Assembly: GCF_022045235.1 (NCBI RefSeq)
Contig: NW_027266297.1
Coordinates: 37,076,001-37,140,000, forward strand
Length of the DNA: 64,000 nt
Reading direction: 5' to 3'
Source of the DNA: Haliotis cracherodii
Lineage: Eukaryota
Shown: positions 13,595 to 53,300 of the stretch, piece after piece
Position numbering within the stretch: the stretch's first letter is position 1
How the letters are laid out: every line of letters starts with the position of its first letter
Translations under genes and position numbers: made by a program
The notes under the pieces: generated by a model
Told to the model about the DNA's origin: nothing
The model's database searches: none
Seen by the model: only the letters and a program-made list of their open reading frames with translations

Positions 13595-16500
13595 GTAACA
13601 ATCTAATAAAAAGTTTTGTCTGCAAGGTTTTTATGTCTGTGCTAAGCCTTTATATGTCTTAGCCACTGTCGCTGATTGTGTTTCTTGTATACGTACTGTA
13701 CCAATACAAGGAAACAAGAAGAACCGTATGCTTGTGAAAGTTTACAAAGTTTCTCAAAGTTTTGTTCATCCCGATAAAGTTTGACATTTCATAAAGATAA
13801 ACAGTCTAACGTCAAATATTGAGAAGAAGGTGGATATTTGTTAGTTTCTGTTACCAATAAAGCCAATAAGGTGTTGTTATGCTTGAAGAGGCACATACAG
13901 ACAGAACAATATGAATGTTTGTTTTTGGTTTTGATTTTGAGACAGATTTTGTAGATGTCTCACGCCATTGCTCATCCGTCAGAAACTGTTTTACTAGAAA
14001 TGTGATGTTGTCATCCTTCATTAAATCTATTTAAATAGTAACAAATTAATATCATTACAATTATTGAACATAATTGAACATAATTGAACATTGTTAATGC
14101 CTGCATCATAAATGTTTTCACCTGTTGTCCATATGATGGAATGTAACCAGAAATGTTTTGTGTTAATAGATTTAGTTTTTACCTGAAAATAATTTAACAG
14201 AAATTCAAACTATGTTGCTTTTCTGTCATGTGGGTTAAGATTTGAGCAATAGTAATCAAAGCAAAATGAACTCTCATCAATATTTCAGTATTGTACTTTA
14301 TGGCGGTTTTGTATAATCATGTTAGTGAATGAAATATGGAAAACCTCTTTAGCAAGGTTCATATTTGCCATAATAAGAGCCATTTGTGCTTAGAAACTTA
14401 ACAAAGGAGCTTATTAAAAACATACTTAATGTCAGAGATCAAGCGGGAGTGAACAAAATTAGCTCAAATGTTGGCGTAACTACATCTTCTGCAATAATAA
14501 GTTACCAGACGAGCTGACTGACAATCTGAAAAGTATTTGCTATTCAGGTAAGCATTATTAGACGATAAATACTGAAACATATAGACACCATAAAGAAGAT
14601 TTATTTTAATTATGTGACTAAACATTCTAAATGGCATACTTGCTATTTCTGTTAATGTTTTTTGAAGGATAATCAAAACTCAATGTCTGCGTGTACAATA
14701 TGCATTCCCTCTACATAGATAAAAGGAATACACATAAAACTAGAGACTGTCATGTAAATGTTCGAGCATAGTACTGGGCGCTTATAAACAATGATAAAGA
14801 CTACTTGCAGATTTGTGGTCAGTGGGTGCTGGAGCAGGGTACTATGTGAATACAGTCTGTTTAGAAATCTTTTGATAGGTATGAACACATCAGCTGTACA
14901 TTGGTATAACATTCCTTACTCTACATGTTTGTAAGACTGTCAAACAAAAGTAGGTCCTTGCTTCTTAGTACCAGTACTTTCACAAATTCTGATGCTCTGA
15001 TGTTTAGAATTAATGCATCACAAGAATAGTAGTCAATATTTGATCTCCTGTCCAAACTAACATCTAACACAGATGCATGATTAGAATCTGTAATACACAA
15101 GCTGAAATAATTGTGCTTTTTAGATTTATGAACAAGCAGTTTTCAAGTATGTTTGGAAAGTGTACATCCCTGGGGACAAGAGAAAATGTTATTTTGGTTC
15201 CGCTCCCGTAACACGATGAAGGAAGGTTACTTTTTATTCTTTTTGCACTTGATTATTCTGCTCCTCCATTGTTCGAACTTGCAATTCCTTAGCGAGTGAG
15301 TCAACTGGTTAACAAACATGAATCCTGAGTCTTCCCTGGGTGTGTAGTGGTATGCGTTGATGGAGTAAGGGATGGGTACCTCCATGTGTCGGCGACATGA
15401 CCTACTGTTGTTGTTCAGATGGATTTCTCCAACACGGTCCCTGGTCTCTCTTGAGATAACATGGTCCCAGCTCTCTCGAGACGACATGGTCCCAGCTCTC
15501 TCAAGACGACATGGTCCCAGATCTCTTGAGACAACATGGTCTCAGCTCTCAAGATGACATGGTCCCTCTCAAGATGACATGGTCACAGCTCTCTCGAGGC
15601 AACATGGTCCCAGCTCTCTTGAGACGACATGGTCACAGCTCTCTCGAGACAACATGGTCCCAGCTCTCTGGAGACGACATGGTCCCAGCTCTCATGAGAT
15701 GACATGGTCCCAGCTCTCTCAAGACGACATGGTCCCAGCTCTCTCGAGACAACATGGTCCCAGCTCTCTGGAGACGTCATGGTCCCAGCTCTCATGAGAT
15801 GATAATGTAGAGTTACAATATCAGGCTTAGACACAACCCTCAGCCTGCTAGTCCTGGCACCAAGAAAAATCTGCTACTGCTTGTATTCTCCCCAAATCTG
15901 TTTATCTTAAATACTCCGCTCGTCCTGAATACACTGTGGAGCAGTTAGATTAAGCTCATTGTCTCTACCCATTTTAGAGAAAATTATGAAATAGGTCAAG
16001 ACTTTCCACACCAAGGAAGATATCAGTATTTTCTTACACATGAAGAGAATTTTCGGTATTATTTCAATTTGGCTTTTAAAGGCTATCAGTGTCTGATGTC
16101 AGAGTGAAGGGTAACTTCTAATAGATACACTGGTATATTGCCACTCAAATAGAAATTGTTGGAGTCATGGCAATAGGAAGTGGGTTATATATAACACTTT
16201 ATTTGATGTTTTTTATCATGTCTTTCTCCCACCAGATGCTAATCAAACAGTTACAAAATGTACATAATGTGACACTGAGTTTTTGATGTTTGATTTATTT
16301 ATGTCAGCATGGTCAGATTGTCTAAAATATTCACGATATTACAATCCAGAGTACAAGGAACAAACACTGGATGTCGACGTCTTTTAAATGTCAGCTGGAG
16401 AAAGTTCATCTTCAGAAAGTGCAAGAATGTTTCATATGTCATAATGTTGCATTGTAAAGGAAATAATGATATGAGAAGCTGTAACAAAGCTTTCATTTCA

Positions 16501-29378: not shown

Positions 29379-32300
29379 CACACTCACACTCTCTCTCTCT
29401 CTCTCTCTCTCCACACGCACACGCACACACGCATGTGCATGCACGTCTCTATATTAGTATACTTATTCCAGTTTCCTTCATACATACAACTGTACAATTA
29501 CACTTACGATGCTTACAGATATTTTCACATCCTTAAACAGATACCCGGTAATGATCTGGTCATATGTACATCTATGTCACTTGGTTCATGCATGTCATCA
29601 CATTCAAATTGTGGAGATCGATGCTCATGATGTCAATCACTGGATTGTCTGGTCCAGATTCAATTTTTTTTAGAAACAAACTAAGATCATTTTCAAATCT
29701 ATCATGTCTATGAACTGTTATTTTCAATAAATATTGATATTTTCAGGCCAGTGGAATGCAAGTAATATACTCCCCTGCCCCCAAAGTGTCTCACACCCAC
29801 AGTGCCCTGCCCCTACAGTGACACACACCCCCAAAGTGCCTCACCCCCACAATGCACAACCCCCACACTGGCCTGCCCCCACAGTGCCACACCCCCATAG
29901 TGCCCTGCCCCCACAGTGCCACATTCCCATAGTTCCACACCCCCACAGTGCCTTGCCCCCACAGTAACCCACCCCCACCGTGGCTTGCCCCTTCAGTGCC
30001 AAACTCACATAGTGCCCCCACCCCCACTGTGCCCCACCCTGCAGTGCCCCACCCACACTGCCAAAGCCCTATAGTGCCCCAACCCCACAGTGCCATTCCC
30101 ACACAGGGCCACACCCACACAGTGCCCTGCCCCCACACAGTGCCACACCCCGACAGTGAGTGTATGCTTGTGTTGCAGGTGACTGTGGAGTACTTCCAGC
30201 TGCTGCACACTGTATCCGCCCCCCTACCTGTACAGGTATGTCCATCTCTGTCCTCCGCACCACTCTGGTGTCTTGTATCATTACTGGGAGTCTGAATACC
30301 TTTCCTTTCAAATATTGAGATCCAGGGAGTAAAATTGGTTCAGATGAGATCTGAATATAATTGGTTTTAGTGAGAAGTATGTTGAAAGAGTATTGATTTC
30401 CTTGAACGTGATTTGCAATAATGTTCAGACTATCAGACTAGCACCACCATTATCATAATTTTCACAATTTTCACTTTCGATGTGCCATAACTCATTTCTT
30501 GTAAAAGAATATCTATACTGTGTAGGTTTTGGGCCCAGTGCCATAAGTTTAGTGCTATGTAAGTCTTGTAAATTACTTGTATTGGTGTACGACTATATCA
30601 GGGTTAAAAATTGGCACTAGTCCTGTAGTCCTTGCCAAACTGCACAATGGTTAAGGTATCATAAGGACTAGGAGAAATTTGCCATTTTAAAGGGGTTTGC
30701 TATATGTTATCAATATAAGTACTAGTAGACTAAATCTGTTCATTTCTACCGCTGGTATAATCCTTCTGTTCATTGGATTCCACATTAATGATCATGTTGT
30801 GTGTGCCCTCAGTTCCACACCCTGTGTGAGAGCAGCAAGACGTACGAGCCCGGCAGTCAGTACGCCGAGTTTGTCCGCAGACTCCCAATACCCACACCCA
30901 ATAGCGGCAAACTAGAACACTTCAGTTTTGAAGCATTTGTTGCTGGAGCCAAGTAAGTCTTGTCTTATGTGTTTGTTTGTTTCACTTTAATACTGACTTG
31001 TATAGAGAGGGGGCACGGGTGGCCCAGTCGTCTGAGGCGCCGCGATTCGCTGTGCAGAGTTGCGTCCCTTGGGCACGCTAGTAACCTATGATTGTGGTTT
31101 GGAATCCCGGTTCGCCCTGATTATGTTTCTAGTTTTGTCAGCACCATACCCGGGCTCGTGGGTTTCACCGAAGTGGTTAACGTCTGAGACCTGCTTTACT
31201 TCAGGCTTTCCTCCCACATTAAGCTGATACGCCGTGATTTAACTGGAATACTGTTAAAAGCGGCATTAAACCCAACTCACTCACTCACTCTTGTATAGAG
31301 AGAACCTTGTGGGGACTCCGCGTTAGAATACATCCCAGCAATCTATGCTGCCTGGTAAGAGGCTGTCAAATGTGATCAGGTGGTGACTCGGTGACTTGGT
31401 TCATTGAGATTATTTTATCCCGACAGCTTTGTTTGCTGCTCACAGTAGCAATCACTGGACCCGTGAAGATTCCGGGATAGAATAGGTCTTCCTCATCCCA
31501 TGCTTGCCGTAAAAGGTGACTAACGGGATCGGGGGGTCAGGCTCGCTGACTTGATTGAAGCATGTCATCGATCCCAATTGCGTAGATCGATGCTCATGAT
31601 ATTAATCACTGGATTGTCTGGTCCAGACTCGATTATTTACAGACCGCCGTCATATAGCTGGAATATTGCTGAGTGCGGCGTAAAACAACAAACCAACAAC
31701 AACAGTAGCAATCACTGGTTTGTGTGTTCCAGACTTGGTTATTTACAGACCACAGTCACAGCCACACACACAAATACACATGCATGCACGTCGCTATATA
31801 AGCGCAATAATCTTGGACGCAACGTTAAACCCAATTTCACCTCACCTCACCATAATACCACAGCATAATAACTGAGAGCACATGGCCCCTTATGTTGGAA
31901 CCCTTCAAGGTGTACTTCTCCTTTCAGGTATGGTGAAGGCCGGAAGCCCAGCACACAGTCTAATGGTTCCGCCTCTTCTGACATGATACCATCAAATGAA
32001 GGATCACCGGTGTCCTCTCCTAGGAAAGGTGAGTCTATGTTACTGACATCATGTAAACTATGTACAGGATTTGGGATGTATTTTGGCCTGTGTTGGCATG
32101 TGGTCCTATGCAAAGGTCACAGGTCACAAATCAGGTGAAGGTCATGGAGAGTAGGTGGATGGGTGACTGCATTTGGCAGCTTGACTTCTCAGCTTCTAGG
32201 GCTTCGGTCCTGCCCCACACTAAAGCACATGTGGTGTGTCCTAGGGCAAGTGACTTTATTCGAATGCCTCTGTTCACCCATCAGTGAGTAGGTACCTGGT

Positions 32301-35300
32301 TGGATCAGATAGGTTTGTGACTGTTAACCTTCTAGCACCTCACAGGGCCGATCGGGTAGCCTAGTGGTTAAAGCGTTAGCTCGTCACGCCGAAGACCCGA
32401 GTTCGATTCCCAACATGGGTACAATGTGTGAAACCCTTTTCTGGTGTCACCTGCCGTGATATTGCTGGAATATTGCTAAAAGCGACATAAAACCATACTC
32501 ACTCACTCACTCACTCACTCACTCACTCACTCACTCACCTCACCTCACAGGGAGCTTTGGGTTGTATGCTGCCAAGGGAGCTGAGAATAATAATGCCCCA
32601 GTGTGCTGTGGAAATACAGCACAATATAACTAGCCTCATTTTTATTTGATACTGTTACCAGCTTATGACGTTCTTAAATCTGTGTCCTGCTTGTTGTGTC
32701 CACATTAAATGACTTTAGGCCACCTTTTTACAAATTAGAAAAGAAATATGATGGTGTTAAGTACACATAGTTATTACGATTATATTGTAGTGGGATCAAA
32801 ATGATATGTATGTATTTTCACTTCAGACAAGAATCGAGGCCCTGTAAAGGCATGGGGTCATTCTGTGGGAATTGGTAGCGACACTGATAGTGCCAGTGGA
32901 AGTAGCAGCAACAAGTCACATGATTCATCGCCTAGCAACAGTCCCCATGCCAATATGAGGAGGCAACTTGTAGCCAGTCAGTCATTGGATGAATTAGCAG
33001 AAGAGGAGCCAGAAAAATATGCAAATGGTTTGTAAAAACTGAAATGGCCTTGAACTTAATCATGATATATATGCTTGATTGATAATTAGCTCCAGAAAAG
33101 CTTTTGTACAATATGTCATATGTGCCTTTTTGGTCTGCAGTTCTGATTCTGGATGAAACAAATAATAATGGACTTTTACCAACTTCTCTTCATGGAATGT
33201 CCCTCATGTAAGATAGGTCAAGATCATTTACCAATGCAGTTGATCAGTATTACAGGAGTCAGAAAGTTGCTTTTTAGATTTGTAACATCTTCAGTTGAGC
33301 ACAAATTTCTGGTTTTATTGTTGGGTATATATATATTGGATATATTCTGTCCAAGAATCCCTAGGGGTGATGTGGATGAGACTTTCATTGTTTTCTTGTA
33401 GGTGATGAACAGCGACGGAATCTCATCAAGAGAATAATGTCAGCCAGTGAAGATGTGGTAGGTGTTTGATTAAAATCTCAGAACAAAATATGCGAATAAT
33501 TTCCAAATTGACAGGAACTTAAGATTCTCTGTTCAGAAAAATATGAGTTGATGAGATGATTTGTCTTTAAGGATGAGTTAGTAAGAGGACTTATGGTTCC
33601 GATGTTACCTCAAGAACTGATCTAATCCTTTCTGGGTCAGTGGGGTAGGTTAATGGGTGAAGTGTTTGCCACACCAAATGCTCGGGTTTGATTCCTCCAG
33701 GAGTACAACGTATAAAGCCCTTTCTAGGTGTATTCTTGCTGGAGTTGTGCTAAAAATCGCTTTAAATTGGTGCACTTTACTTCAGCTGATAATTGCAAGT
33801 TTGCAGCGCCTGAAACTTAATGCTATGTGGTTTTAAGAATGATTTTTTCCATCAGCCAAACCGAGGTCGGCGGCACACAACATTTGGTGTAGACTTCCAG
33901 GAACAGGTGAACCAGTTTAAGATGGAGGTGCCACCCATTGTGTCCATGTGTCTGTCAGAGGTAGAACTGCGTGGACTCACCATCAAGGTAGGTTCAACAC
34001 CACGCAAATGTCAGTTTACACATTTAGTTGAATTTGCAGCATTAGAAATTGGCACTAGTCCTGTAGTCCTTCCCAAACTGCCCAATAGTAAAGGTATCCT
34101 AAGGACTAGTAGACATTTGCCATTTTTAAGGGTTTTGCTATATGTTATCACTATGAGGACTAGTGGAGTAAAACTGTTAGTCTCTACCGATGATTTGTAT
34201 CTTAAGCTAAATGTACCGTGTATTCCGAGTTATTGAAGCCTCAATGTATCCATTTCTCTACCCAGGGAATGTACAGAGTGTCCGGTGTGAAGAGTAAAGT
34301 GGAGAACTTGTGCAATAGGTTCGACATTGACCCGGACTCAGTCGACCTCTCAGAACAACACCCTAATGTCATCTCCAATGTGCTGAAACTCTACCTACGA
34401 CAGGTATGGTTTAAACCAGGTGTATCTACTAATGCAACCGTGTTTAAAAAGTAGCAATCTTTTACTTTGACAACTAGTCCAATGCTCAAGTTTACAGTTT
34501 CTACTGAAAGGAAAGCCAATGGACAGTTGGGCTTTGTCACCTTCAGTAGTTTAGTACAAGATTTGTATTCACTACGATCCTTTTATCACCCATGCATACA
34601 TGTGACTGCTGAGTAGGGCTGGGACGGGTAGCTGGGGTACTCAGGTCAGGTGGATACTGAGAAGCACCCGGATACCCGGACCTGTGGTTAGTCATGTGAT
34701 ATATTGTTTAAGGAAAAAAATTATCTAGAACTCTATGGTTAAACTACAAGTCACTAATGTTTGCATTTCTTTCTCACTATGCATGCATTCCTTCTGACTT
34801 TTATGTTTGAATAAAGATAAAACATAAGTCAACTTCAGTGTATTCATGACCTGATAGTTGTTTGTGTGTATTTAAATACATTTTGCCAGGGCTATGGTCA
34901 ATCTATTCCCAATTATACAAATTTGTACCTTTCTCTAGAGACCTTCAGCGATTACCCAGGTAGGGTTGGGTAATAGTGGCTTGGGTACCCGGGTAGTAAC
35001 TTTGGACTTGTCCCAGCCCTACTGCTTAGTGATGTATAAGAGACATGTGTCTATTTTCATCTGATGAAATGGAGCCTTGTATTACTGTGTGTAGAAACTT
35101 AGTGTGACCCATTACATTGGCTGATACTGAAGTAATGTGTAGAGCTCATGACCATACATGTTGCATGAACCAATGCCGTTTGTACAATATAATCTGAGTG
35201 CTCATTGGCCTGAGGAGTCTGTTCCCACATGCTGGGAGACCCATGAAGATTCCGGGTTAAAATAGGCCTTCAGCAACCCATGCTTGCCGTAAAAGGTAAC

Positions 35301-38300
35301 TATGCTTGTCTTAAAAGGCGACTAACAGGATCGGGTGGTCAGGCTCGCTGGATTGTCTGGTCCAGACTCTTAGTATTTTCAGACCGCCGTCATATAGCTG
35401 GAATATTGCTGAGTGCGGCGTTAAACAACAAACAAACAAACATGCCGGGACCAGGCCATGACTTGAATTGTTGGTTAAAAATAGCGACTGAACTGCAAAG
35501 TGGCTGTACATTTGTATTTCAGCTTCCAGAGCCCCTGTTGACGTTCCGGTTTTACTCAGATTTTATACATGTGGCAAAGGTATGTACACCTGATATGAGG
35601 AAAGATTTTATGCATGTGGCAAAACAGAAAAGTAAATCCATTTCATTCCTGTCTTCAATGATACCATAGCTTCTAAAGATCAGGGCACATAGGTGGCGCT
35701 GTCACGTAAACCGCCACAAGTACCCGTGCAGAGTTGCCAGATATAACTGTGATCGTGGGTTTGAATTCCAGATTCTCCCTGATTATGTTTCTAGGTTTGT
35801 CAGCACCATACCCCGCTGGTCATAATGCCTTTTTTGAATTTTAACTCCACAGTGTTACCCTGTTGGGATTCTGTGTTAGAACTGGCTCCCAGCAACCTCT
35901 GTTGGTCATAATGGCTTAGTGGATTGGATCGCCAGGCTTGTTGACTTGGTTCATGGTGTGTCATTGTTCCCCGATGGTGTGGATCATTGCTCACAAAATT
36001 AATTACTTGATTGACTGGTCTAGACTCCATTATTGACTGCTGTCGGGGCAGTCGGGTAGCCTAGTGGTTAAAGCGTTCGCTCGTCACGCCAACGACCCGG
36101 GTTCGAATCCCGACATGGGTACATTGTGTGAAGCCCATTTCTGGTGTCCCCCGCCTTGATTTTGCTGGAATATTGCTAATAGCGGCGTAAAACCAAACTC
36201 ACTCACTCACTCACTTATTGACTGCTCTCATATAGCAGGAATATTGCTGAGTGGAGCATTTTATAACAAACACACACACTCACCAGTATCAGATGTGGGC
36301 CAATACCTACAGACGTTAAAAGATGGTACTTGTTGTTGCCCTGTCTGGCGCTGGGCATTAAGGGGATAAGACAAGGACAGATGTGGGCCCACCTTTATGA
36401 CTGTTTCAGGCACACACACACTCACTCACTTGTTTCAGGAACACTCACTCACTCACTCACTCACTCACTCACTCACTCACTCACTCACTCACTCACTCAC
36501 TGAGATGTGGGCCCACTGTTTACCTCTGTGACTGTTTCAGGCACACACACTCTCACTCACTTGTTTCAGGAACACACACTCACTCACTCAGATGTGGGCC
36601 CACTGTTTACCTCTGTGACTGTTTCAGGCACACACACTCTCACTCACTTGTTTCAGGAACACTCACTCACTCACTCACTCACTCACTCACTCACTCACTC
36701 ACTCACTGAGATGTGGGCCCACTGTTTACCTCTGTGACTGTTTCAGGCACACACACTCTCACTCACTTGTTTCAGGAACACTCACTCACTCACTCACTCA
36801 CTCACTCACTCACTCACTCACTCACTGAGATGTGGGCCCACTGTTTACCTCTGTGACTGTTTCAGGCACACACACACTCACTCACTCGTTTCAGGAACAC
36901 TACTCACTCACTCACTCACTCACTCACTCACTCACTCACTGAGATGTGGGCCCACTGTTTACCTCTGTGACTGTTTCAGGAACACACACTCACTCACTCA
37001 CTCACTCACTCACTCAGATGTGGGCCCACTGTTTACCTCTGTGACTGTTTCAGGCACACACACTCTCACTCACTTGTTTCAGAACACACTCACTCACTCA
37101 CTCACTCACTCACTCACTCACTCACTCACTCACTGTTTACCTCTGTGACTGTTTCAGGCACACACTCACTCACTCGTTTCAGGAACACTCACTCACTCAC
37201 TCAGATGTGGGCCCACTGTTTACCTCTGTGACTGTTTCAGGAACATACATCAGGTGTTATGAGTAGCCTGAAGACGATAGAGAAGTTGTCCTATCTGGTT
37301 CGGATGCTGCCTCCTTCCAACTTTAAAACCTGTGCTGTTCTCATGCATCATCTACAAAGGTAAATAATCAAATCACCACAGAATTCCACGGATTTCGTTA
37401 CGTCAAGTGTCACTTTTGTGATACATGCCATTACAATATACACATAAATCATGTAGACCTCAGCTAACTTTCAGTGTGCTTTTTTTGAGTAAAAACATTC
37501 TCATCCCTTCTCTCTTGGGGCAGTGAGGTAGCCTAGTTGTTAAGGCAATCGTCATCACACTAAAGGCCTGTGTTCGATTCCCCAAATGAATGCAGTGTGT
37601 GAAGCTCATTTCTGATGTCCTGGTCCATGATATGACAACAATGCAGTCCTGACAACACCCAGCATGAACGCAGTTTATCTGCCTTACAGCACAAAAAACA
37701 AGATCCTGATCCTCTGACATGTACCCATCTTTCATAGTTATTACCAGAGAGCCAATTGCGTGATTATTTTACCTTGTTTCATTCATCTAAGAGTGTGTTG
37801 TATAGAAATTTGAATACATTATCAGGGTAGCCGCTCACTCTGATGTGAACCAGATGAGCTCCAGCAACCTGGGCATCGTCTTCGGCCCAACACTACTCCG
37901 ACCAGCGTAAGTAACACTACTCCGACCAGCGTAAGTAACACTACTCCGACCAGCGTAAGTAACACCACTCCGACCAGCGTAAGTAACACCACTCCGACCA
38001 GCGTAAATAACACTTCTCCGACCAGCTTAAATAACACTACTCCGACCAGCGTAAGTAACACCACTCCGACCAGCGTAACACTACTCCGACCAGTGTGAGT
38101 AACACTACTCCGACCAGCGTGAGTAACACTACTCCGACCAGCGTGAGTAACACCACTCCGACCAGCGTAAGTAACACCACTCCGACCAGCGTAAATAACA
38201 CTTCTCCGACCAGCTTAAATAACACTACTCCGACCAGCGTAAGTAACACCACTCCGACCAGCGTAACACTACTCCGACCAGTGTGAGTAACACTACTCCG

Positions 38301-41300
38301 ACCAGCGTGAGTAACACTACTCCGACCAGCGTGAGTAACACCACTCCGACCAGCGTAACACTACTCCGACCAGTGTGAGTAACACTACTCCGACCAGCGT
38401 GAGTAACACTACTCCGACCAGCGTGAGTAACACCACTCCGACCAGCGTGAGTAACACTACTCCGACCAGTGTGAGTAACACTACTCCGACCAGCGTGAGT
38501 AACACCACTCCGACCAGCGTGAGTAACACTACGCCGACCAGCGTAAGTAACACTACTCCGACCAGCGTAAGTAACACTACACCGACCAGTGTAAGTAACA
38601 GCTGACAAGCCATCCACCCTGTGGACTGTATATGCTGGGTTTAAGTGAGATAGACATACGTATAATTTTCATAATACATGTATGGAAGATTCATCTACAG
38701 AATAGCAGTGTCTGAGTAATAAGGCAGAAAAATGTTTGTGTTTTCTTTGATACAATTATCATGTTATGTTAGTAAGAAGAATACTGATCTCCATTGTGTG
38801 ACTTATTAACAAAATAAGCCACTTATGATGTTTTGGGTTTTTTTTCATTTCTATATTGATGTCAATATTGATTCGGGTATATCACTGTCCAGAATTTAAG
38901 AAGGTGATAGCCAACAGCCGTCTTGGAAAACATTCTTCTCAATTAATTTCAAAATTACAACAAAAAAGATTTACATGTCATTGCGTTTCTGTGATTATGC
39001 AGGGAAGGAACAGCCTCGCTAGCCTCTCTGGTGGACACACCACACCAAACCCGGGCCATTGAACTACTTATCTCATCAGCACAGGTATCTAGCATAGCAA
39101 CATGAAATCAACACTTCCAATGCAAACTTTTCTGAATACTGCCGTGTATCATGAGTCCCTCCAGTGGGAATTGCAGGTCTCCTGTACTTACTGCTGGTAG
39201 AAAGACCTCAGACCCCAGTGAAGATCCGGCCTAGAATTGGTCTTCAGCAAACCCATGCCCATAAAAAGCCACTAACGGGATCGGGTGGTCAGACGCACTG
39301 ACTTGGTTGATGCATGTCATTGTATCCGAATTACATAGATTGATACTCATGATGCCAATCACTGGATTGTCTAGTCCGCTTACTGCCGTCATATAGCTGA
39401 AATATTGCTGAGTCAGGTAGTAAACAACAAACAAACATACCTGACTTAGCAGGGATAGAAATATCTACTGGACCGAAGAGTAACAACATATGACAATACC
39501 CCCTTAGGATACCTTTGACATTAACAAAACTGGTCCTGGCCAGTGGGCTGGCTGTAACTTCCATTCCTGCTAAGATGAGGTGATTTGTCAGATTGCATGT
39601 CATTGCATCCTGATGCCATTGATCATTGATCAATTGGGATCATTGTCAATGGTTTGCCTGGTCCTGACTGTTTTCTGATATAATTAAAATAGTGCTGACT
39701 GCAGCATTAAACTAAACAGCATTCACTCACTCACTGTAATGAAAAAACACAAGATGTGACTTTCAAAAGTGTTGTGTTTGAAATAAGAAATTCGAATATG
39801 AGTGTTTGTCTTTATTGTGTACAGTTCCCATACCAGGCTGTTGATGTGACATGTGTTGTAATGAACATGTTCCGTCTCTGTTACAGACCATTTTTGGTCC
39901 TGGAGCTGACTATCAGCTTATAGGAGGTGAGACACCGGTGGAGGAGCTGCCCGATCCAGCACCCCAAGCAGCCAGACAGACAAAATCAGGTAGTCCATCC
40001 ACTCATCCTAGAGTCCCGAAACTGAGGGGTCTAGTGGACAGAGCGTTCACTCATCCTAGTGTCCATAAACTGTGAGGGGGGCAGTCAGGGGGTCTAGTGG
40101 ATAGAGTGTTCACTCATCCTACAGTACACGAACTGTGAGTGGGGCAGTCTAGTGGATAGAGCGCTCACTCATCCTACAGTACACGAACTGTGAGTGGGGC
40201 AGTCTAGTGGATAGAGCGTTCACTCATCCTACAGTACACGAACTGTGAGTGGGGCAGACTAGTGGATAGAGTGTTCACTCATCCTACAGTACACGAACTG
40301 TGAGTGGGGCAGTCTAGTGGATAGAGTGTTCACTCATCCTACAGTACACGAACTTTGAGTGGGGCAGACTAGTGGATAGAGTGTTCACTCATCCTACAGT
40401 ACACGAACTGTGAGTGGGGCAGACTAGTGGATAGAGTGTTCACTCATCCTACAGTACACAAACTTTGAGGGGTGCAGTCTAGTGGACAGAGCGTTCACTC
40501 ATCCTAGTGTCCATAAACTGTGAGGGGGGCCAGTCAGGGGGTCTAGTGGATAGAGTGTTCACTCATCCTACAGTACACGAACTGTGAGTGGGGCAGTCTA
40601 GTGGATAGAGTGTTCACTCATCCTACAGTACACGAACTGTGAGTGGGGCAGACTAGTGGATAGAGTGTTCACTCATCCTACAGTACACAAACTTTGAGGG
40701 GTGCAGTCTAGTGGACAGAGCGTTCACTCATCCTAGTGTCCATAAACTGTGAGGGGGGCCAGTCAGGGGGTCTAGTGGATAGAGTGTTCACTCATCCTAC
40801 AGTACACGAACTGTGAGTGGGGCAGTCTAGTGGATAGAGTGTTCACTCATCCTACAGTACACGAACTGTGAGTGGGGCAGTCTAGTGGATAGAGCGTTCA
40901 CTCATCCTACAGTACACGAACTATGAGTGGGGCAGTCGAGTGGATAGAGTGTTCACTCATCCTACAGTACACGAACTTTGAGGGGGGCAGTCTAGTGGAT
41001 AGAGTGTTAGCTCATGCTGATAACCTGGGTGAATTCTCACATTCAGGGTTTCAGCTGTGAGTGAGTGAGTGGGGTTTTACGCCGCTTTTAGCAATATTCC
41101 AGCAATATCACGGCGGGAACACCAGAAATGGGCTTCACACATTGTACCCATGTCGGGAATCGAACCCGGGTCTTCGGCGTGACGAGCGAACGCTTTAACC
41201 ACTAGGCTACCCGACCGCCCTCAGGGTTTCAGATCATTTCATGTTTTGCGACACAGACTGATTGTCATCTAAAACGATCTGAGGATATTTTTCAAATTTG

Positions 41301-44300
41301 GTAATGAAATGGAAGAATTTCCTGTCGAGTGGATAAGATCATGAAAATGTCCTGGGCCCACTTGCACAAAGCCACCTTAGTGGTAAGACCATCGTAACTC
41401 CCATACTTTAACATAGACTTACAATAGTGTTCGCACTAAGATTGGTTTGTGCAAGTGGGCCTTGATGTCAGTGTCTCTACCACACTCACTGTACACCGGT
41501 ACAGTCTGTGAAGCCTATTCTTGATGTCCCCCGCCGTGATGTGACTGGAATAGGGCTTATAGAGATGTAATACGCCACTCACAGAACTGCGATTAGCATG
41601 ACAGTAAGGTATGTGATACATGAGGTTTGGTTGTCATGACAAGTCTCATTACTTCCATATGATCATATGATCATATGATGTCTGTCTTTCAGAAACCAAG
41701 GAAGTCTTGACCGTGTCTGTACCATCGGAGCCTCCGTCAGTGAAACTTCCTTCAAGGTATGTTGAGGCTTGATTACACTAATTGTATTGTTGTGGTATAG
41801 GCAGAAGTCACAAAGTGACTTAGACAGGCTTTCCTTCAACACTGATGCCTGAGTATTTTCACTGACATTTACCAATTAATGACAAAACCAACAATCAGTC
41901 AAGTGTGACTTTATTCTTTTCACGATATGCTGCACATGATTTCCAAACTTAACACGCTGATCCTGCACGAGACAAAAGTGATGTGATGTGTTCATGAGCA
42001 TCGGTTCACACAACATATCACTATGTTCATTGTGCATCAAACCAATCTAATATCTCTTGAATATGAGTAAGTCTTCATATAATAACCAACATGTGTGGTA
42101 TTTGCGTTTCATTTGGTGGTGTGTATATTATCACATTGGAAACATCTCTTCTTAACATACATACTTCTCTATATATTTCTATGGTTCATGTTTCTTTTGG
42201 TGGTGAGTATCTATCAGTGTAAGACATTAACAGATATCCTAGGCCTTTGATGTAGTTTGATTATTTGATCTAATACTCTCCCAAAAAGTTTTCTGATTGC
42301 TCCATGCTTTCTCTTGTAATGTCTAATGCAGGACCGCCTCCGTGGTCTAGTGGTAGAGTGTCCGCCCGGAGAGCGGAAGGTCCGGGGTTCGATCTCTGCG
42401 TCATACCAAAAGACGTTAAAAGATAGTACTTGTTGTTACCCTGTCAGGCGCTCGGCATTAAGGGGCTTAAACAAGGACTGGTCGGCTCAGAGTCTGTATA
42501 CAGTGTCTTGAGTGGGGTATTCATGTTAAACTGTGGCATGGTATCTCAGTGTGCTAGCACTATAAATCGGCATCACTCTGGACTTGTACAAGCAGCCACA
42601 GACACACGTGCATGCACGTCGCTATATAAGTGCAATAATCTTGGACTCGACGTTAAACCCAATTTCACCTCACCTCACCTCTAATGCAGGATCATACAAA
42701 TACTTTATCTGAACTCTCAAAGGGAGATAAGCCTGACTGTATCTGTCCCTTGATCAATGTTGTTGTTTTTCCAGCAGCCAGCCTGTGGATGTGGCAGCCG
42801 TGGACAAGATCGTGCAGCCGGCGGACGAGGTTGACGGGGACAGCTCCAAGGTACTGTCCTCCCCTTCACACTTCATGGCACTGGCAGGAAGGATCACAAA
42901 CAGTCTAACGCTAGTCTCAAAGTCTGACTCATTGAAGGAAATAGTACCTAGATCTAGGGGCAAACAGACTTGTGCAGCCTTTTTTCCAAATGTGTATTGT
43001 CTTTGGTCCATATATCACATCAGCTCCTTTTATCTCATTTGCTAAGATAATGACTGGTATGGCTTAGATTTAGCTAAGTAAACATTAGTACTCAGGCACC
43101 ACTTGCATAAGCATCAAAAAGCTGATATAAATTTATTCTCTTTTTGTTTTGAGAAGAAAAGGTCACTGCCAACACCAGTTGTTCAAACCTTTTTGCCAGA
43201 AAAGTGGCCAAGTTGTTGAGCTTTCGACTGTTACGATCATGCCTGCCACACGTTGTTTTGATATTTTGGTCACCAGGCACCTATCTTACTTTTCTGCAAT
43301 TACTCATCGCTGATAGGAAGCGATGTTACTCATAGTGACATGATTGAGGTTTTCTCTCAGATTGTCCTTCACATACATTATGGGTTAGTTCAATGGATTG
43401 GAAAGTAAGTTATTAGAAGAAGGGATAATCCAGAAAAATATATTTGTGCTTTAACAATCCAGTATTATTATGATTGACATAACCTGTATTAGACAGATTG
43501 TACATAAATATCCTCACCATTACACCTGTAGTGGTCTGATTCATTTACTGTCTTAGGATCCAGGGTCCTCAGAGTCCATCAGCTAGAACTTTGGAGGGAT
43601 TCTGAAATAATATTGACATGTGTTTATTTCTTATGCCACCAGTCCTCATGTATTTCCTTGCCACGTCTTATTGCAGACCTCGGGGGCGGAGTTTGTACTG
43701 CCTGGCAGTATGAGCCCCGGGAAGAGTGACAATATGTCTCCCACAAGCACACTGACCGAGGGTAAACTACTGACTACCCCACTTAGCATGACACGGCTTA
43801 CGTAGCAGCCTGCTTGTGGGCTGCCGCCCCGGCTGTAGCCTCAGTGCCTGCTGGCTCAGCATCTAATACTCCATTAACTGCTCGCTCATCATTTTCTTGC
43901 AACCATGTCAGAATCATAGTGGAAAAGCCCATTGATAAGATAATTATTGAATATTTTAAATAATTTTTTTAGAGGTTTTTACAATGACTTTTTGGAAGTT
44001 TATACCAAATAGGTACTACAGCATATTAATCTCTAGTGTACATACTGTGTAAGATTTTTTTTTTTTTTTAAATATCAATATCTACAGGCATTTTGATAAG
44101 GTGAATTTGACAATAATATTATATTTTTAATGTATTATATCAGTGTTTGGTGTTAGGATGAACATTGTGTCTTGTCCATTCCTGATGTTTACAAGTTCAA
44201 TTTTAGATTTTGCAAGGCTAACTACAAGTTCAATTGCAGTTTTGGGTAAAGCAGGGATGCATTTAGTGATCACAACTTAATATGCAAGTGCAATATGAAT

Positions 44301-47300
44301 TCATATGATCAATTTGAAAAAATACCACAAAGTCTGCTATAAACTTCCAAATGTATTTATATAGGTCAGTGGGCTAAATCCTCTTGTCCTCTACGACTTT
44401 AACACTGTTGATTCTGAGTGTGTTGGATAAATGATGAGTCTGTGTGTCTTCATCTAACACAATGCCTGAAAGGAGTCATTCACAACAAGTGTGTCTTGCT
44501 GAGTTGGCATCTAGCTGTTTCATATTCATCCCATGTATTCCATTTGCTTTAGATTGTTTGACAGCTGATGTTGCACACTGCACAGTTGTTTACTGGCTCC
44601 ATCATGTCATCATGGCTGCTGTTGCAGATTCACATTCACATTCATCCTCAATTCATCTTTCAACCCTGACTCAACCCAGATGGAACTTAATACTTTCAAA
44701 TACTTGCCCAAATCAGGTTTTATGTGGTAGATATATCCAGGGATGAGAGTCTTCCGCGGATCTATGAATTTCTGCAAACTTCCGCAAACTTTAGTGACCA
44801 CAAATTTGTTAAAATCTGAGGGCTTGAGCCATAAACACCTAAAAATATGGACCATGCTCCATTGCAAAGAAGTTCCACCTGAAAAGGAAAATATCCATTC
44901 TCATCCCTATATAGCTAAGGTATCAGTGATATCTATCGCCCAGACTTGCCCTCTTTGCAAAGCATCCGTTCTTGATCTGTGAAGTATTGAAATGGCTGTC
45001 AGTCTGTTTGAAAAGTGTTTCAGTATAAGTGTCAGTATGAGAGTCATTGAATGCAAAATATTTCAATGATTAGGGTGTTCTTGTCTAAATCCTCCCTTTA
45101 GCAGCACCTGCAACAACATCTACTTTAGGTGATAGCTAACTGTGCGCTTCTATTTAAACACTGGATATTTAAGGCTGAATAGTATGTTCTTTTCATCCAG
45201 TTCATTACTTGTGTGAGTAGATTGTTCTAGGATATCAAGGCATTCAGAGCATTTTTTATTGTTATCTTTGTTTGTAAAAAGACTTGTCAGTTTTATCAGG
45301 ACACTGCCACATACCGTCTCTCTGAGACAAGACACCCAGATCGGTAAACTCCTTTCAGACCGCCCACCAGTGTGTGCTAGCCATCATCCTCATCTGTAGC
45401 TTCATCACATATCTAACATCTCACTCTATAACGCTCCGCTGGGAGATAAACGCTGTATCACAACATCTGCATGTCTCTCATGTGGGCAGATATACTCTAG
45501 TGGTAGAACCATAGACTGCACCTCTCCCTTTTGGAGACTACTCTCACTACAAATGTGATCATGTTATCTGCATGTCTCTCTTGTGGGCAAATATACACGT
45601 AGTGGTAGAACCATAGACTGCACCTTTTTCATTGGAGAATACTCACTACAGATATCGGCATGTTATGTGCATGTCTCTCTTGTGGGCAAATATACACGTA
45701 GTGGTGGAACCATAGACTGCACCTTTCTCCGTTGGAGATACCCTCTGCAGATGTTGGCATGTTGACATGAGGGATGTACTGTAGCTGTAGCTGATACAGG
45801 TCATAATACATCAGTGATATGGATTGATTCTGCCAGGGTGTCGCATGTCATGGAGAATGTTACACTGTACGACATACCTGCCTGTTGTAATTTGTTGCAT
45901 TATGAGACTGCGGTACAGTGTCTGATATTGCTGGGATGCATTATTGGGTCGTATTCCTTGTATGGGTTAAACGTTTCATTTCAAATCTGGTATTAATGCA
46001 AGTGGGTATGAACTTTTGTCATGGTATTAAGATGTGAAATGTGTGTGATGTGCATGTATGAGAACCGAGTAAGAGTTACCTCCCTTGCATGTACTATACC
46101 TCTTCAAGCTATCATGACATATTGCAGCATGGAATACAACATATATAAACATCATTATTCACAGTGTATATCAGTGTATTTATCAGTTTGAATTGTAGTG
46201 AAGGCTTCTAAATAATACATGGATATGCAACATTGTTTTTATTAACAAGTGCACACTATACTCTGTACGATTTATTAATGCATGTATATTGTACTAACTA
46301 AAATATTTATAATGGTTTAACCATTGAATTTGTCAAAATAAAAGGAAATTATTATTGAGAGTGTTGCACCGAGATTGTGTTCGGCATATTGTATATAAAT
46401 CCTTAAGAAACAGTATGTTGCATTTGACTTATTTTAGTTTCTGTCGGTCAGTGGTACTGACCCGTGAAGATCAGGAGTAGAATAGGTCTTCAGCAACCCA
46501 TGCTTGCCGTAAAAGGCAACTATGCTTGTCATAAGAGGCGACTAACGGGATCGGGTGGTCAGGCTCGCTGACTTGGTTGATCATGTTGATGCATGTCATT
46601 ATGTCCCAATTGCGTGGATCGATGCTCATGATTCAATCCCTGGATTACCTGGTCTAGACTCGATTATTTACAGATCACCTTCAAATAGTTTGAATATTAC
46701 TGAGGGCGGCTTTAAACAACAAACAAACAAACGGTATTGGTACTGTGGAAACTATGGCAACTGTCACATTAACTAGTCATTGTAGGGTTGCTTTTAGAAC
46801 TCTTTAACCTAGATCTATCAGACTTATGAAAGACCTTCCATGTTTTGGTTGTCAGTAGAATAATTGTTGATTATGGCACTTCTGATTTTTGTCATTCTGA
46901 TATTTTCCTATTCAAGTAAATTTTCTAAAATGTCTACACATTAGCTTTTAATGAGCATGGACATCCCCCAATCAACTTTTGGTGGTCCCACTTTTGGAAG
47001 GAAGAGGGCCAGCTAGGATTATCTCCCTTTTGGGGATTTCCGGGTTAGATTGGCCCACAGCAACCTATGCTTGTTGTAAGAGGCGACTTAATGAATCAGG
47101 TGGTCAGGCTTCGGGGCAAAGTTAATGTACTAGACAATGTTGGATCGTTGCTCATGATATCAATCAGTGTTTTCTTCTGGTCCAGACTTGATTATTTACA
47201 TGAGGCCATCATATAGTAGGAATATGAAGGCAGCTTTCAACATTAAAAGACACATTTGACAAGCTATGACTTAAACACAATATCTCGATGCAACACTATA

Positions 47301-50300
47301 ATTGGGTTCCGAACTAGTGGGTTATATTTTTTTCAGGGTTCAGTACTTGAGCCTCCAGGATAACAGTCCTGAAACACTGGCCACATAACAAGCCCTTACT
47401 GTAGCAGCACTAACCAAGCATGACAACACATATCCACCCCAGTATTGAAACATACTAAATCACTTCAAGCTGTTCTGTTATTTGGTACTGGCTGATTTCT
47501 TCATAAACCAACAAAAATTCCAAATTTACAATGATGTGCATGCTTATGGTTCATCTGTGAATATTATGTTCAGAACTACCTAGAACTCCTGCTAGATTTA
47601 TAATGCTGTCAGGTTTTGTTCTCAACCATTAGGATATGAGTTAGAATTGGTCTTAAGCAACCCATGCTTGTCGTCAGAGGCGATTAATGGGATAAGGTGG
47701 TCAGACTCGCTGACTTGGTTGATGCATGTAATCATATCCCAATTACTTAGATCAATGTTCACTATATCAATCACTGGGTTATCTGGTCAAGACTTGATTA
47801 TTTACAGACCTCCGTCCTATAGCTATAATATTGCTGAGTGCGGTGTTAAATAACAAACAAACAAATATCTCGCCAGTATACAGAGACCCTGGTCGTAAGA
47901 GGCAACCAAATGGATCAGCTGGCCAGACTGTTGATGGTGTGTCATCGTACCCGACAGCGTGGATCGTTCACAATACCAATCACTGGATTGTCTGGTCCAG
48001 ACTAATTATTTAGAGCCTGCAAACAAACATCTGAACGAAGGTGTTGTTTTGCTGAATGAAACATTATTAACTTTGTGTTCTGTGTTGATATCATGAGACT
48101 TTACATCTTTCTACATGGCCATGCTGGAATGTAAATATGCAGGTTATAATTTACATTATGCTAATTTGAAATTTTGTTTTATGTTTAAGAAGAGGTCAGC
48201 CTAAACCTGTTTGGTATTGCATGAATACTGCATGATTGCATGCCCACACTCACTCACTCACTCCATGTGAAGTCGTGGACTGAGATTAAACCTTGTGAAT
48301 CTTGACTAAGTCAGTAGACCAACACAGTAATGAGAATGCCTTCAGTGTAATTGCATGATTATATTAAATTAAACCCAATTACCTCACATTTTGAAAAAAG
48401 CTGTAAAAATAAGACATGGTGGAGAGACAGGACATTTCGTCATGGCGTGCTGTGATTTGCTTCTTTGAGACTCTAGAGTAAGGTCGGTATTTCAGGAGAC
48501 GATGAGTGGAATGATTTAGATCTCCAATCGGATGATGAGTTGCCGGATAATTTGCTTCCGGACGACTCGACTACTCCCGGCTCGGCCAATCATCAAGCTG
48601 TGCTTACTCCACACTGCATGGCAGGTAATATCAACACCACCTGTTCAAGTGATATACCCATGTTATCTACCAGAATACAGCGCTGTGAAAACCAAGCATA
48701 TGTACAAGAAACATCCATGTCTTTACAAGAAACTAAAGTACCAACAAGTAGACCCAAAGTCTTTCTCCTCTTCTTGCCCATTTCACAAAGCAGTCTTAGC
48801 ATTACAACTACCTTACTTTACCACTGACTGATAGTCGAAGTGCGCAACTTCTTTGTGAAACAGGCCCCAGATTTGTTTAATGGATCAATCATAATTAGGT
48901 GTATATGATTGTTTTATTTTTGTCAGCACTCTTTATGGGCACAGTTTTATGCAGATTGTAACATTTTTATTTGACCGTATTTTGTTTATATGCACCGTTT
49001 CAATAGTTGTTACTAAAATACAACAAAACATTTCCAGCTTGTAATACATGCAGATACATACCAAACAAACTTTGAACAACAAACGCAACATTCAGACACA
49101 TACCAAACAAACTTTGAGCAATAAACACAACATTCAGACACATACCAAACAAACTTTGGACAACGAACACAACATTCAGACACATACCAAACAAACTTTG
49201 AGCAATAAACACAACATTCAGACACATACCAAACAAACTTTGGACAACGAACACAACATTCAGACACATACCAAACAAACTTTGAGCAATAAACACAACA
49301 TTCAGACACATACCAAACAAACTTTGGACAAAGAACACAACATTCAGACACATACCAAACAAACTTTGGACAACGAACACAACATTCAGACACATACCAA
49401 ACAAACTTTGAGCAATACATACAACATTCAGTTTCACATACAAACGAAACTTTGAACAATAAACACAAAAGAGACAAGTATGGCTATGATTAATGTTGAT
49501 TATATGTTTCTCTATGGGGAAATGAGGGTGTATGTTCCAGGACGTCTGTGTGTTAAGGAATAAATAGTTGCGGTGTGTTAACTTGCTGTCCATCTCCCAA
49601 CAGAGTTGTGCAGTCATGAGAGTTGTCTGCCCTTTATTGAGGTGGAGGAGAGTGAGATGGCGTATACATGTATTGTTAGCAGCACCACAGTGCGTAAGTG
49701 GCCTTCAAGTGATGTGTTACCTTGGCTGTGTCACCTCCCTGCCCTTTACTCAAAACTGCTGGAAAACTGTTACCCACTTCGTACTGGTAGTGTGATACCT
49801 CGCGAGAAAAAAGATTCAACTCTTCAGAATCACTTGACTTGGGTGATTTATGGCCTTAACAAGGTAAAATTCAAGTCATAAGAACAACACTTTTTTTTGT
49901 CTGCTCAAACTTCATGGCAAACCTGTCCCAATGTTATGTAGAACACTAATAATGATGTGAAGACCTAGTCTGAAACTAGACAACAGACTGTGGAGCATAG
50001 TCTTTCTGTAAACATTAATGTTGTACCAGCTCAAGTATGTTAGAAATACAAGTGCAGAAAGAAACACTGCTGCATTAAATGTATCTTGAAGTTGAACCAT
50101 TTGACCCTATTCAGAAACTTTAGATTTAGAATATACAAATCAAGTTTTGGTTAAATTTATAGATGGATAATATACCTAACTGTGATGAAGCAGCTGATAG
50201 TTTAAGCTTGAATTAATAATGCATTTCCCTGCTGTCGCAGTGTTTGATTCTAAGACTTGTGATGGCCACAACTTGACTCTGATGGGTCATAGTTTACCAG

Positions 50301-53300
50301 CAACACAATGACGGTGATTCCCTTCTCACACAAGGTGCCTAATGCACTCTTCATCTGCAAAGTGTCCAATATTTGTTCAAGCAAGGCTTTGCTTTCAAGG
50401 TGTCAACTTTTTGAAGCAACCCTTTACTTACATGGCGTCCACTTTTTTGAAGCAATCATTTACTTACATGGCGTCCACATTTTGAAGCAACTCTTTACTT
50501 ACATGGCGTCCACTTTTTGAAGCAACCCTTTACTTACATGGCGTCCACTGTTTGAAGCAATCCTTCACTTACCAGATATCAAGTTCCAAGTCACATTAAC
50601 CCAACTTTTTTTTCAGACTGTTTTGCAGTGGATTTAACAGTTTGCATTTCAGATAGGAAGATGCAGCGAAACTCTTGGCCATGGACTGTACTCATATTAG
50701 TGTTGATACAAACTAGCAAAACTACAGCCATTTGAAAGAGTGATCAACAGGTTTTTGTATTTCAACATTAATGTGAACAAACCAGAGACCAGATTTCCCT
50801 TGCTTATTAAAGTCCTATGGTAGATCATACCCCCTGTTTTGATCTGCTATTTTACATTGGGTCTCTAGGGGGTTCTTTAGAAGGATAGACACCAGTTATG
50901 TTGAGTGTACTGTTGTGTTCCCTTATCCAACAAGCAGTGGTGTGCTCAGCTGATTCCCATACTCCAGACTTGTAGGTACTCCCGTTTAGGTATGCCACAT
51001 GGGAATACGTCCTCAAGTCAAACTATTATCTGGAACTCTCAAGTTAGAACAGTAGCTTGGAATATATTTACACAGATTGTATCCTAAATTTCCTGGGTAC
51101 CTTTAAGATGAGGAAAATTGTTGGCTTCAGCTGTTGATTGGTCAAATTGGGATGGAAACCGGACAGTGACATGATTTGCATTAAACCCTAAATGTTAGAA
51201 CCATGAGAATAACTTTACAAGGAAATACAACGGAAAGCATGCTGAAAAGGCATTACCCAATTTGACTCGAATGAAAACCTAGGAAGAATTGGTGTTTTGG
51301 TTTTGGTTTTTAGAACTTTGTACTCTGTTTCAGCCCTCCAGTTCCCCCACTTCCCCTATTGACAGGTAACAGTGTGTAGATATAACTACTTATCTACCTA
51401 CCACGGTGACAGGGCTTTACGTATGTCATATATACCAGGTTGTAGTGGTTGATGAGGCTCACCCTGTGGCAGTCACGACGGTGCAAATCATGTGCAGTGA
51501 GAGATTGACAGATCACCAACATGCATGCATGCACTTACCTGCAGGCAGGGAAGATGACTGAAATATGATTACCGTATTCAACGTAATAAGAGCCTACGGC
51601 GATATTTGCCAATATTTGGACAAGTGAACAATCCCAATTAGCACCCCTTCCGATTGATCAATTTACACAAAACTTATTTATTCGCGTATAATACGCACTC
51701 GTGTGTCACAAGCACCCTTAATAATGGGCAATTAAATTCTGGAATAATATATCTGTCGTATATAAACATTTCAGGCTGTCAGCATAAACCACAAAATTTA
51801 TCTTTCAACTCAGTTTTTTTTTCACCCAAATAATATTCTAATAAGAGCCCCCTATTTCTAATTTTGAGAGCGCCCTAGGCGCTTATTAAGTCGAATACGG
51901 TAGTCATTGTTTGCTACAATACTTTTTTTTGTTTAACTGAAAATGCAAACATATTCAAAGTTTGTTTGTGTTTGAACTGTTTCAGTTATTTTTTCTACAA
52001 ATTAAGACATGGAATAAGACTTGTTTGTGTCAGATTAGTCCCATGGTTCTCATGATTTGGTTGACCCCTGTCAAGATCCGGGTTAGAATTGGCCTTCAGA
52101 GGTGACCAGCAGGATCAGGTGGTTGGGTTCACTGACTTGGTCGATGCATGTCATTGTATCCCAATTGCGTAGATTGGTGCTCATGATTTTCAGACTGCTG
52201 TCATATAGCTGGAATATTGCTGAGTGCGACATTGAATAACAAACAAACTGGACTGGACAGGACTGGACTGGTTGACTGGACTTTGGTTGTAAGAACAATG
52301 CAAAACTGGACCAGAGCGCCCTGGACTGTTCGACTGGACCTCGTTACTTTGGACTTAGCCTGTACAACTGCCCATAATGGAGAATCCTAAGAGGCACTAC
52401 TGTATTTGCTGTGATATGCGCCCTGGGCACCTAGAAAAGTGACAGAGGGTCGCTAAACTATACACAACAAATTAAATTTGTTCAGGAGATCGATCCATTG
52501 TGGATAAACTTAGTTCAAACATCAATGAAACTAATATTTTTTCAATGATAATTACTGGGCAGTTAAAATTACCCCCTTCTCTGTAATATGCACACAGAGA
52601 TATGGACATCATGTGAATTATCAGTCTTAGGGAGGCTTATAAAGATTTTTTACAAGTTGGTCAGGGGACACTTTTTGGAAAGGGGCACATAATATGGCAA
52701 ATACAGTAACTGTAAAGAATTAGAGAAATGTAATGGTTGTATCCACACAGTTCATAACATAGATTAGCTTGTGTAACAAGTTGGTGAACCAACAGATGTA
52801 CCAATATCACAACTACAACCCGTATTACTAAGCATTGCACAAGGTACACTCGGCTGGTAGGGACTGCAGGTCAAAATACGTCCTCACTACCCCATGCTAG
52901 TCTTTGAGTGGTGATGATGAGTTTGTGGTCATTACCATGATTACAGTTTGTGACATGGCTGGTAGTGCCCCAACAGTGGGCTGGTTGATCATGCTTTCAA
53001 TGACAGTCAGACTCTGGTTATTTCCTTGCTGCTATAACATAGCTGTAATATTGCTGACTGTGGTATAAAACATCATTCACTCACTTAATGAGTTCACACT
53101 TACGGAACACAGTTTGCACTAACATTGCACAGTGATTTGCACCCCGTTACAAGTACTGCGTTGTGGATTTTTCAGCAGTCTAGTTTGGACTGTTGTGTTG
53201 TGGCGGTGATGAAAGATGATGTTTCAAGGGTTGATGCATGCGAAGGGTCTAGGGTCAGTGGGGACAGGTCAGTGGCTTCATTCACTCATTTCTAGATGGG

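Follow-up and report, generated by a model that had tools for sequence, protein, structure and literature searches.

The RhoGAP gene and its junction arrays

A stretch of 64,000 nucleotides (nt) from the abalone Haliotis cracherodii (assembly GCF_022045235.1, contig NW_027266297.1, positions 37,076,001 to 37,140,000; hereafter the window) carries an ARHGAP45/29-like RhoGAP gene in which several tandem repeat arrays lie at exon–intron junctions. The protein P0001, named by its source as a rho GTPase-activating protein 45-like protein of H. cracherodii, maps letter for letter onto 31 coding exons and 30 GT-AG introns, and a 46-residue exon of the gene is a 100% match to abalone rho GTPase-activating protein 45/29-like proteins. 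An initial annotation of the window, whose exon numbering agrees with this exact chain, had described five junction-anchored duplications within 11 kb and had read them as repeated birth of tandem repeats at the junctions of one gene. All five features lie where they were reported, but two copy a splice site, two adjoin one, and one is a lone copy. The features, with the exons taken from the P0001 chain, are as follows.

13502–56334, plus strand: ARHGAP45/29-like RhoGAP gene, an exact spliced match to P0001
29778–30158, plus strand: degenerate C-rich 16-nt minisatellite (Tandem Repeats Finder: 23.7 copies, 67% matches)
30179–30235, plus strand: exon 15
35523–35579, plus strand: exon 22
35604–35624, plus strand: single copy, within the intron, of the 21 nt that end exon 22, 19/21 identical, lacking the donor GT
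about 36402–37245, plus strand: acceptor-spanning compound array with interleaved (CACT)n tracts and 15 decoy TTTCAG acceptors
37241–37359, plus strand: exon 23, with the array's final copy as its acceptor
37826–37906, plus strand: exon 24, with the array's first copy as its donor
37889–38600, plus strand: donor-spanning 24-nt minisatellite of exon 24, 30 units
39887–39989, plus strand: exon 26
about 40000–41015, plus strand: 55-nt minisatellite, starting about 10 nt past the exon 26 donor

A repeat unit that crosses an exon–intron boundary is the hallmark of the 'mirage' minisatellites of amphioxus, to which we return below, and such units make up the arrays at the exon 23 acceptor and the exon 24 donor. 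The former contains TTTCAG 16 times, the last of these being the real acceptor, at 37241. Each unit of the latter joins 18 exonic nt to the donor hexamer; 26 units are of 24 nt or terminal and 3 are of 20 nt, the array is flanked at both ends by AACA microhomology, and an in-frame stop stands directly behind its first donor. Of the decoys, 8 acceptors and 22 donors reach a score no more than 1 bit below that of the real site, or exceed it.

No boundary lies within the unit of the remaining three features. The C-rich array stops 20 nt before exon 15, with the acceptor outside the array and a unit free of any splice site, and the 55-nt array likewise copies no splice site; both are ordinary minisatellites. 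The end of exon 22 (35559–35579) does reappear 45 nt downstream, as the initial annotation noted, but because the intervening 24 nt are unrepeated and the copy has no GT, this is a lone copy and not a tandem duplication of the junction. The idea that the 55-nt and C-rich units derive from dispersed families was considered and rejected: a search of the abalone's own genome returned this locus alone for the C-rich unit and, for the 55-nt unit, this locus and a weak match of 72–76% on contig C5, a blank search being no proof of rarity. Tandem Repeats Finder detects eight large arrays in the gene, four at junctions and four, omitted from the initial annotation, in mid-intron (15446–15793, 45465–45763, 49046–49468, and 50379–50572).

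Splicing at the arrays

The two sequencing runs that look like RNA over 37205–37925 (X13 and X12, whose RNA status is a software guess and not a recorded property) both gave contigs that begin at 37239 and omit intron 23, a GT-AG intron of 466 nt. Just past 37906 these contigs stop matching the genome; their last positions, up to 37916, carry the mismatches that joining to the start of exon 25 would produce. The main transcript thus uses the last acceptor at exon 23 and the first donor at exon 24, and normal splicing was undisturbed in both runs, in contigs from which rare forms would be lost. This choice of sites also explains why the arrays look as though they expand on the intron side, and the reported geometry, in which all features expand into the intron, follows from it.

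Tandem duplication of splice-site-containing sequence had been put forward as a route to intron gain and sliding. By comparison of abalone proteins, as distinct from ortholog gene structures, three proteins (P0001, P0002, and P0003) are alike over the exon 14/15, 22/23, 24/25, and 26/27 joins, with no residues gained or lost, and a fourth (P0007) is of equal length over the exon 24/25 join; neither gain nor sliding is seen in this comparison.

As a separate observation, the start of intron 24 (37907–37918) resembles the start of exon 25 (39003–39014) at 8 of 12 nt, and the last array unit (38590–38601) does so at 10 of 12. A likeness of 8/12 between intron start and next exon start was attained by 2 of 359 sampled introns, and at intron 24 it may be due to chance. 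An RNA-templated origin of the arrays was rejected: the spanning units include the true intron start, a copy at another locus (L206) has no next exon behind it, and the intron 24/exon 25 likeness amounts to 8/12 nt.

Enrichment of arrays at junctions

The comparison called for by the initial annotation, of arrays within 25 nt of splice sites against the intronic background, was carried out on 140 stretches of 10 kb from the same genome, containing kinesin, SLC6, kinase, and aldehyde dehydrogenase genes; the sample thus represents four conserved families and not the whole genome. Exons were located with local profiles and splice sites with weight matrices, which placed 39 of 47 sites of the RhoGAP gene exactly before filtering. 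There were 702 exon hits, of which 36 fell inside arrays and were set aside; of the resulting 1,332 exon ends the filters kept 1,069, and removal of three paralogous loci with common arrays left 1,040 junctions. Three stretches without repeat output were entered as empty, and myosin and Ras loci stayed outside the counts. The junction zone was defined as the 25 nt to either side of a splice site and the background rate was taken from array edges 100–1,500 nt from a junction. Arrays with a period of at least 10 cover about 14–15% of the 1.4 Mb sampled.

Array edges were found at 38 places in 50,344 nt of junction zone versus 142 in 513,368 nt of background, an excess of 2.7-fold (95% range from a locus bootstrap, 1.9–3.8). 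The excess appears in all four families (12 observed versus 4.8 expected, 18 versus 6.9, 6 versus 1.7, and 2 versus 0.8), is 2.3-fold in non-repeat DNA, and reaches 4.6-fold in the 25 exonic nt that precede donors. When arrays were reshuffled inside their own introns, 27 of 65 lay at a junction versus 16.9 expected, a 1.6-fold excess (P = 0.0008). Junction enrichment is therefore real and moderate, two- to three-fold in the sampled genes, and the refuting outcome named in the initial annotation, a lack of enrichment, did not occur. Some 55 of the 1,040 junctions, about 1 in 19, have an array. The RhoGAP gene has arrays at 4 of its 60 junctions, against 0.83 expected at the deep-intron rate (P = 0.01) and 3.2 expected at the genome's junction rate (P = 0.39), and so is typical of its genome and not special.

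The excess is confined to arrays that have grown. In non-repeat DNA, arrays of at least 5 copies were found at junctions 32 times versus 10.8 expected, those of fewer than 5 copies 7 times versus 10.2 (Fisher P = 5e-4). The same split emerged from reshuffling within verified introns, where 19 of 35 high-copy arrays lay at a junction versus 8.9 expected (a result reached in 0 of 20,000 simulations) and low-copy arrays showed no excess (9 of 60 versus 11.1). The claim of repeated birth at junctions finds no support in these low-copy counts. Unit identity, taken as a measure of age, showed no difference (88.5 versus 89.5%).

Two compositional accounts of the excess were rejected. Dilution of the background by mobile elements alone lowers it only from 2.8 to 2.3, and GC content alone predicts 1.0–1.5-fold across all arrays and no more than 1.9-fold in the high-copy class.

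In the SLC6 gene L253 a 44-nt array stretches from the donor to the acceptor and takes up an entire intron of 1,774 nt (854–2628, gene strand); this intron, of collapsed length about 38–44 nt, is a candidate for building or inflation by duplication. The kinase locus L287 (1824–2533, gene strand) carries 9.5 copies of a 75-nt unit that seems to contain most of a short exon plus its donor. In a kinesin gene (L173:4313–6800, within G000:C12:51661500–51671499), an 83-nt unit made of about 25 exon-end codons and the donor occurs in some 26 copies in one intron; this array produced 27 false exon hits and was excluded from the enrichment count. Mid-intron arrays at L188, L261, and L199 have units matching the junction of their own intron and are junction arrays since detached.

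Age and sharing among abalones and paralogs

Sequencing contigs from other abalones bear on the age of the arrays. In organisms B and C the 24-nt unit stands at 9 to 24 times the depth of its flanks, and C also has back-joints that pass through variant units. The 55-nt unit forms short contigs of high depth, with loose ends leading into further units, in B, C, and D alike; a 55-nt back-joint also occurs in run X2 of organism A, which may derive from the source of this DNA. The arrays are real, and at least two of them, the 24-nt and 55-nt arrays, are older than the split of these species. Over the core of the acceptor array, depth in organisms B and C is not raised; in C, a single contig departs upstream of 37212, the uncovered part proving nothing. 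The congeners differ in unit variants and very widely in array depth, contig depth being neither a copy number nor a means of separating alleles.

Paralogs within the genome tell of similar persistence. The SLC6 paralogs L234 and L237 have a common 55-nt acceptor array, 88–91% identical within and about 67% between, and L231 and L239 have a common 32-nt junction array. In paralogs with common junction arrays the introns are otherwise unalignable and the mid-intron arrays differ, and copy numbers diverge widely (56 versus 8). A 121-nt donor-spanning duplication common to the SLC6 paralogs L232, L234, and L237 has 88–90% identity, equal to that of the exons, the remaining introns again being unalignable.

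Origin of the junction excess

With moderate confidence we regard the RhoGAP arrays and their counterparts as mirage-type minisatellites whose junction excess arises after birth: arrays pinned to an exon would be lost to deletion less easily and would therefore outlast and outgrow those in mid-intron. Birth itself would be ordinary, with a short stretch duplicated between microhomologies anywhere in a gene, probably by slippage between copies such as the AACA seen around the exon 24 array; this is favored because extra duplication at junctions should appear in the young, low-copy class. Splicing, as the major transcript contigs show, retains the first donor and last acceptor, so that added copies become intronic, and at exon 24 any downstream donor would run into the stop according to the sequence. 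Selection would purge cases that disturb splicing, which the over-representation of strong donors suggests: donors spanned by arrays score 9.7 on average versus 8.3 for others (21 versus 503 donors, P = 0.005), as a splicing filter would give. The same strength led us to reject compensation for weak splice sites. GC-rich units, like exon ends, would grow more readily, in keeping with the observed association (high-copy arrays are 45.6% GC versus 38.3% for intron DNA). Unit turnover would finally renew the arrays while mid-intron DNA is replaced through mobile elements and deletions, and the exon would shield one flank of an adjoining array, the persistence itself being observed in paralogs and congeners. 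Dispersed repeats occupy 4–8% of the intron sequence lying up to 50 nt from a junction versus 29–36% at 100–800 nt, and exon-side DNA therefore turns over less. The initial suggestion that random duplications survive only where they extend into the intron accounts for the geometry, but such a filter should not by itself suffice, because it cannot raise density above the neutral intron rate.

Several points weigh against persistence and growth beside exons as the full account. The paralog evidence comes from three groups in one gene family, and the shielding from deletion is a step that we infer. GC content explains merely 1.35–1.8-fold at donors, and the exon 24 donor is itself weak (score 4.2). 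The enrichment is also asymmetric, with donor-spanning arrays most enriched (16 versus 3.1 expected) and acceptor-spanning ones hardly or not enriched (5 versus 3.9 and 5 versus 5.9), and it fades over 50–100 nt, more sharply than long deletions alone might yield. A higher birth rate at junctions may be masked by purifying selection on young duplicates. Finally, high-copy mid-intron arrays are biased on the sense strand for G (80 of 115) and for CAGGT (19 versus 5 antisense), which the model does not predict.

That bias is what would be expected if expansion were coupled to splicing or transcription, such that units with splice motifs or G-rich sequence on the sense strand stall the polymerase or spliceosome, or form R-loops, and grow faster in the germ line. 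The G skew averages +0.16, versus 0.002 in the intron background and 49 of 101 skewed arrays in the low-copy class; GTAAG occurs 10 times in sense versus 0 in antisense, acceptor-like motifs 21 versus 1, and donor-like motifs 24 versus 10. Regional strand skew was rejected as a source of the bias, with 63 concordant versus 56 discordant pairs, as expected. The enrichment peak is sharpest across donors, and the copy number of spanning arrays exceeds that of mid-intron ones (median 16.4 versus 6.05, P = 0.003). Against coupling, 76 of the 115 arrays are not enclosed by a verified pair of exons, and some contact unannotated exons (L274, L287); in known introns, once the three arrays matching their own junction are removed, 20 of 32 are G-skewed, similar to 18 of 33 for low-copy arrays; and seven of the eight large arrays of the RhoGAP gene are C-skewed on the sense strand. 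We consider coupled expansion rather unlikely on balance. The bolder proposition that splice signals drive array growth in abalones, units with sense donor or acceptor motifs expanding faster through co-transcriptional spliceosome binding or R-loops and intron length evolving by splice-site amplification, is a little more tentative still; if true, it would explain why 19 of the 35 high-copy arrays in verified introns, more than half, are at junctions.

Masked birth can also be framed as the first option of the initial annotation, duplication focused at junctions, with most young duplicates purged by selection and the excess left among old survivors. Donor-spanning arrays were necessarily born at a junction, and lone exon-end copies, of which the exon 22 copy is a case, occur at 2 of 505 donors versus 2 of 2,500 random places, counts too small to decide. 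Low-copy duplicates, however, show no excess even on the intron side, where little selection is expected, and survivors should keep the high-to-low ratio of mid-intron arrays, whereas 32:7 is seen versus 78:74; we find this explanation doubtful. Chance contact between arrays and junctions in a minisatellite-rich genome with short introns is harder still to maintain. It draws on the large share of DNA in arrays, on the mid-intron position of half (4/8) of the large RhoGAP arrays, on that gene's typical array count, and on the reduction of the overall excess under the within-intron null. Yet the excess outlasts paralog removal, repeat masking, the locus bootstrap, and that same null, so that chance is largely refuted in the sample and now appears very improbable. 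Equally improbable in our judgment is a function for the additional splice-site copies, retained to tune splicing or to protect long introns. The persistence of arrays across species would fit such a role, as would a human repeat in ABCA7 whose length alters splicing (PMC5954066), but the spanned sites are stronger than average, transcript contigs contain only authentic sites, two of the four RhoGAP junction arrays copy no splice site, and paralog copy numbers lie far apart.

Other features of the window and sample

The exon 28 acceptor is a CAGCAG (42772–42778), at which P0002 has one extra serine, and P0002 also lacks exon 30 (48496–48624); both differences are likely alternative splicing. 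Upstream of the first coding exon stands a near-perfect 202-nt repeat in four copies (5838–6644). An open frame on the minus strand (1036–1392) resembles an exon of a neighboring gene, putatively serine/threonine dehydratase-like. Elsewhere in the assembly, about 14 myosin-head genes are clustered in tandem at G000:C12:64586973–64958118. Intronless kinesin and kinase matches at G000:C74:4486–5433 and C74:24214–24885 contain 20 and 10 in-frame TAA/TAG codons and no TGA, and C74 is likely a ciliate-code contig, from a contaminant or symbiont.

Comparison with known systems

Mirage minisatellites were described in amphioxus, in Adh3, the globin genes BflGb6 and BflGb9, troponin C, and PGBD5, as tandem repeats across either exon–intron boundary with units of 10–160 nt, cryptic AG and GT signals, normal splicing, and concerted unit turnover; in its passages on the subject the globin study calls their origin and mechanism unclear, and those passages contain no background test (PMC3087553, PMC3902484). 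The abalone genome has the same boundary-spanning arrays, cryptic signals, normal splicing, and unit turnover, with several arrays per genome. The differences are that the host is a mollusc, that two of the four RhoGAP arrays merely abut the junction, and that the abalone excess is measured against a background and confined to high-copy arrays. In the literature searched, by titles and abstract openings and with subscription journals mostly outside its scope, no genome-wide, background-controlled test of such enrichment was found; one report (PMC10078293) concerns, in the part available, splicing effects and not repeat position.

Two human variable number tandem repeats (VNTRs) offer close parallels to the exon 24 array. 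In the 37-bp VNTR of F7 intron 7 the first unit spans the exon end and donor, and the most upstream donor is chosen while identical downstream donors go unused (PMC1557585). The exon 24 array matches it in both respects; the F7 case comprises 5–9 donors and rests on mutagenesis, whereas exon 24 has 30 units and is known from transcript contigs. The 25-bp VNTR of ABCA7 intron 18 starts at and includes the donor, as does the exon 24 array, and its variable length changes splicing and disease risk, a second donor sometimes being used (PMC5954066). Unlike ABCA7, the abalone contigs show no use of a second donor, rare forms being lost from contigs.

The model in which introns arise by tandem duplication of splice-site sequence (Rogers 1989, cited in PMC3087553) and human cases of repeat-driven intron changes in paralogs (PMC2812944) have their raw material in common with the abalone arrays, namely duplicated splice-site sequence. 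In the RhoGAP gene, by contrast with that model, no intron is new or shifted and the protein is unchanged at the joins.

Because exon-end copies yield false homology matches, as in the single kinesin intron described above, such arrays call for caution in gene annotation, and genomes like that of H. cracherodii offer hundreds of natural tests of the choice of first donor and last acceptor. The abalone arrays belong to a known class, the mirages; what they add is a measured excess restricted to grown arrays, which turns the question of mirage origin into a test of birth versus persistence versus expansion.

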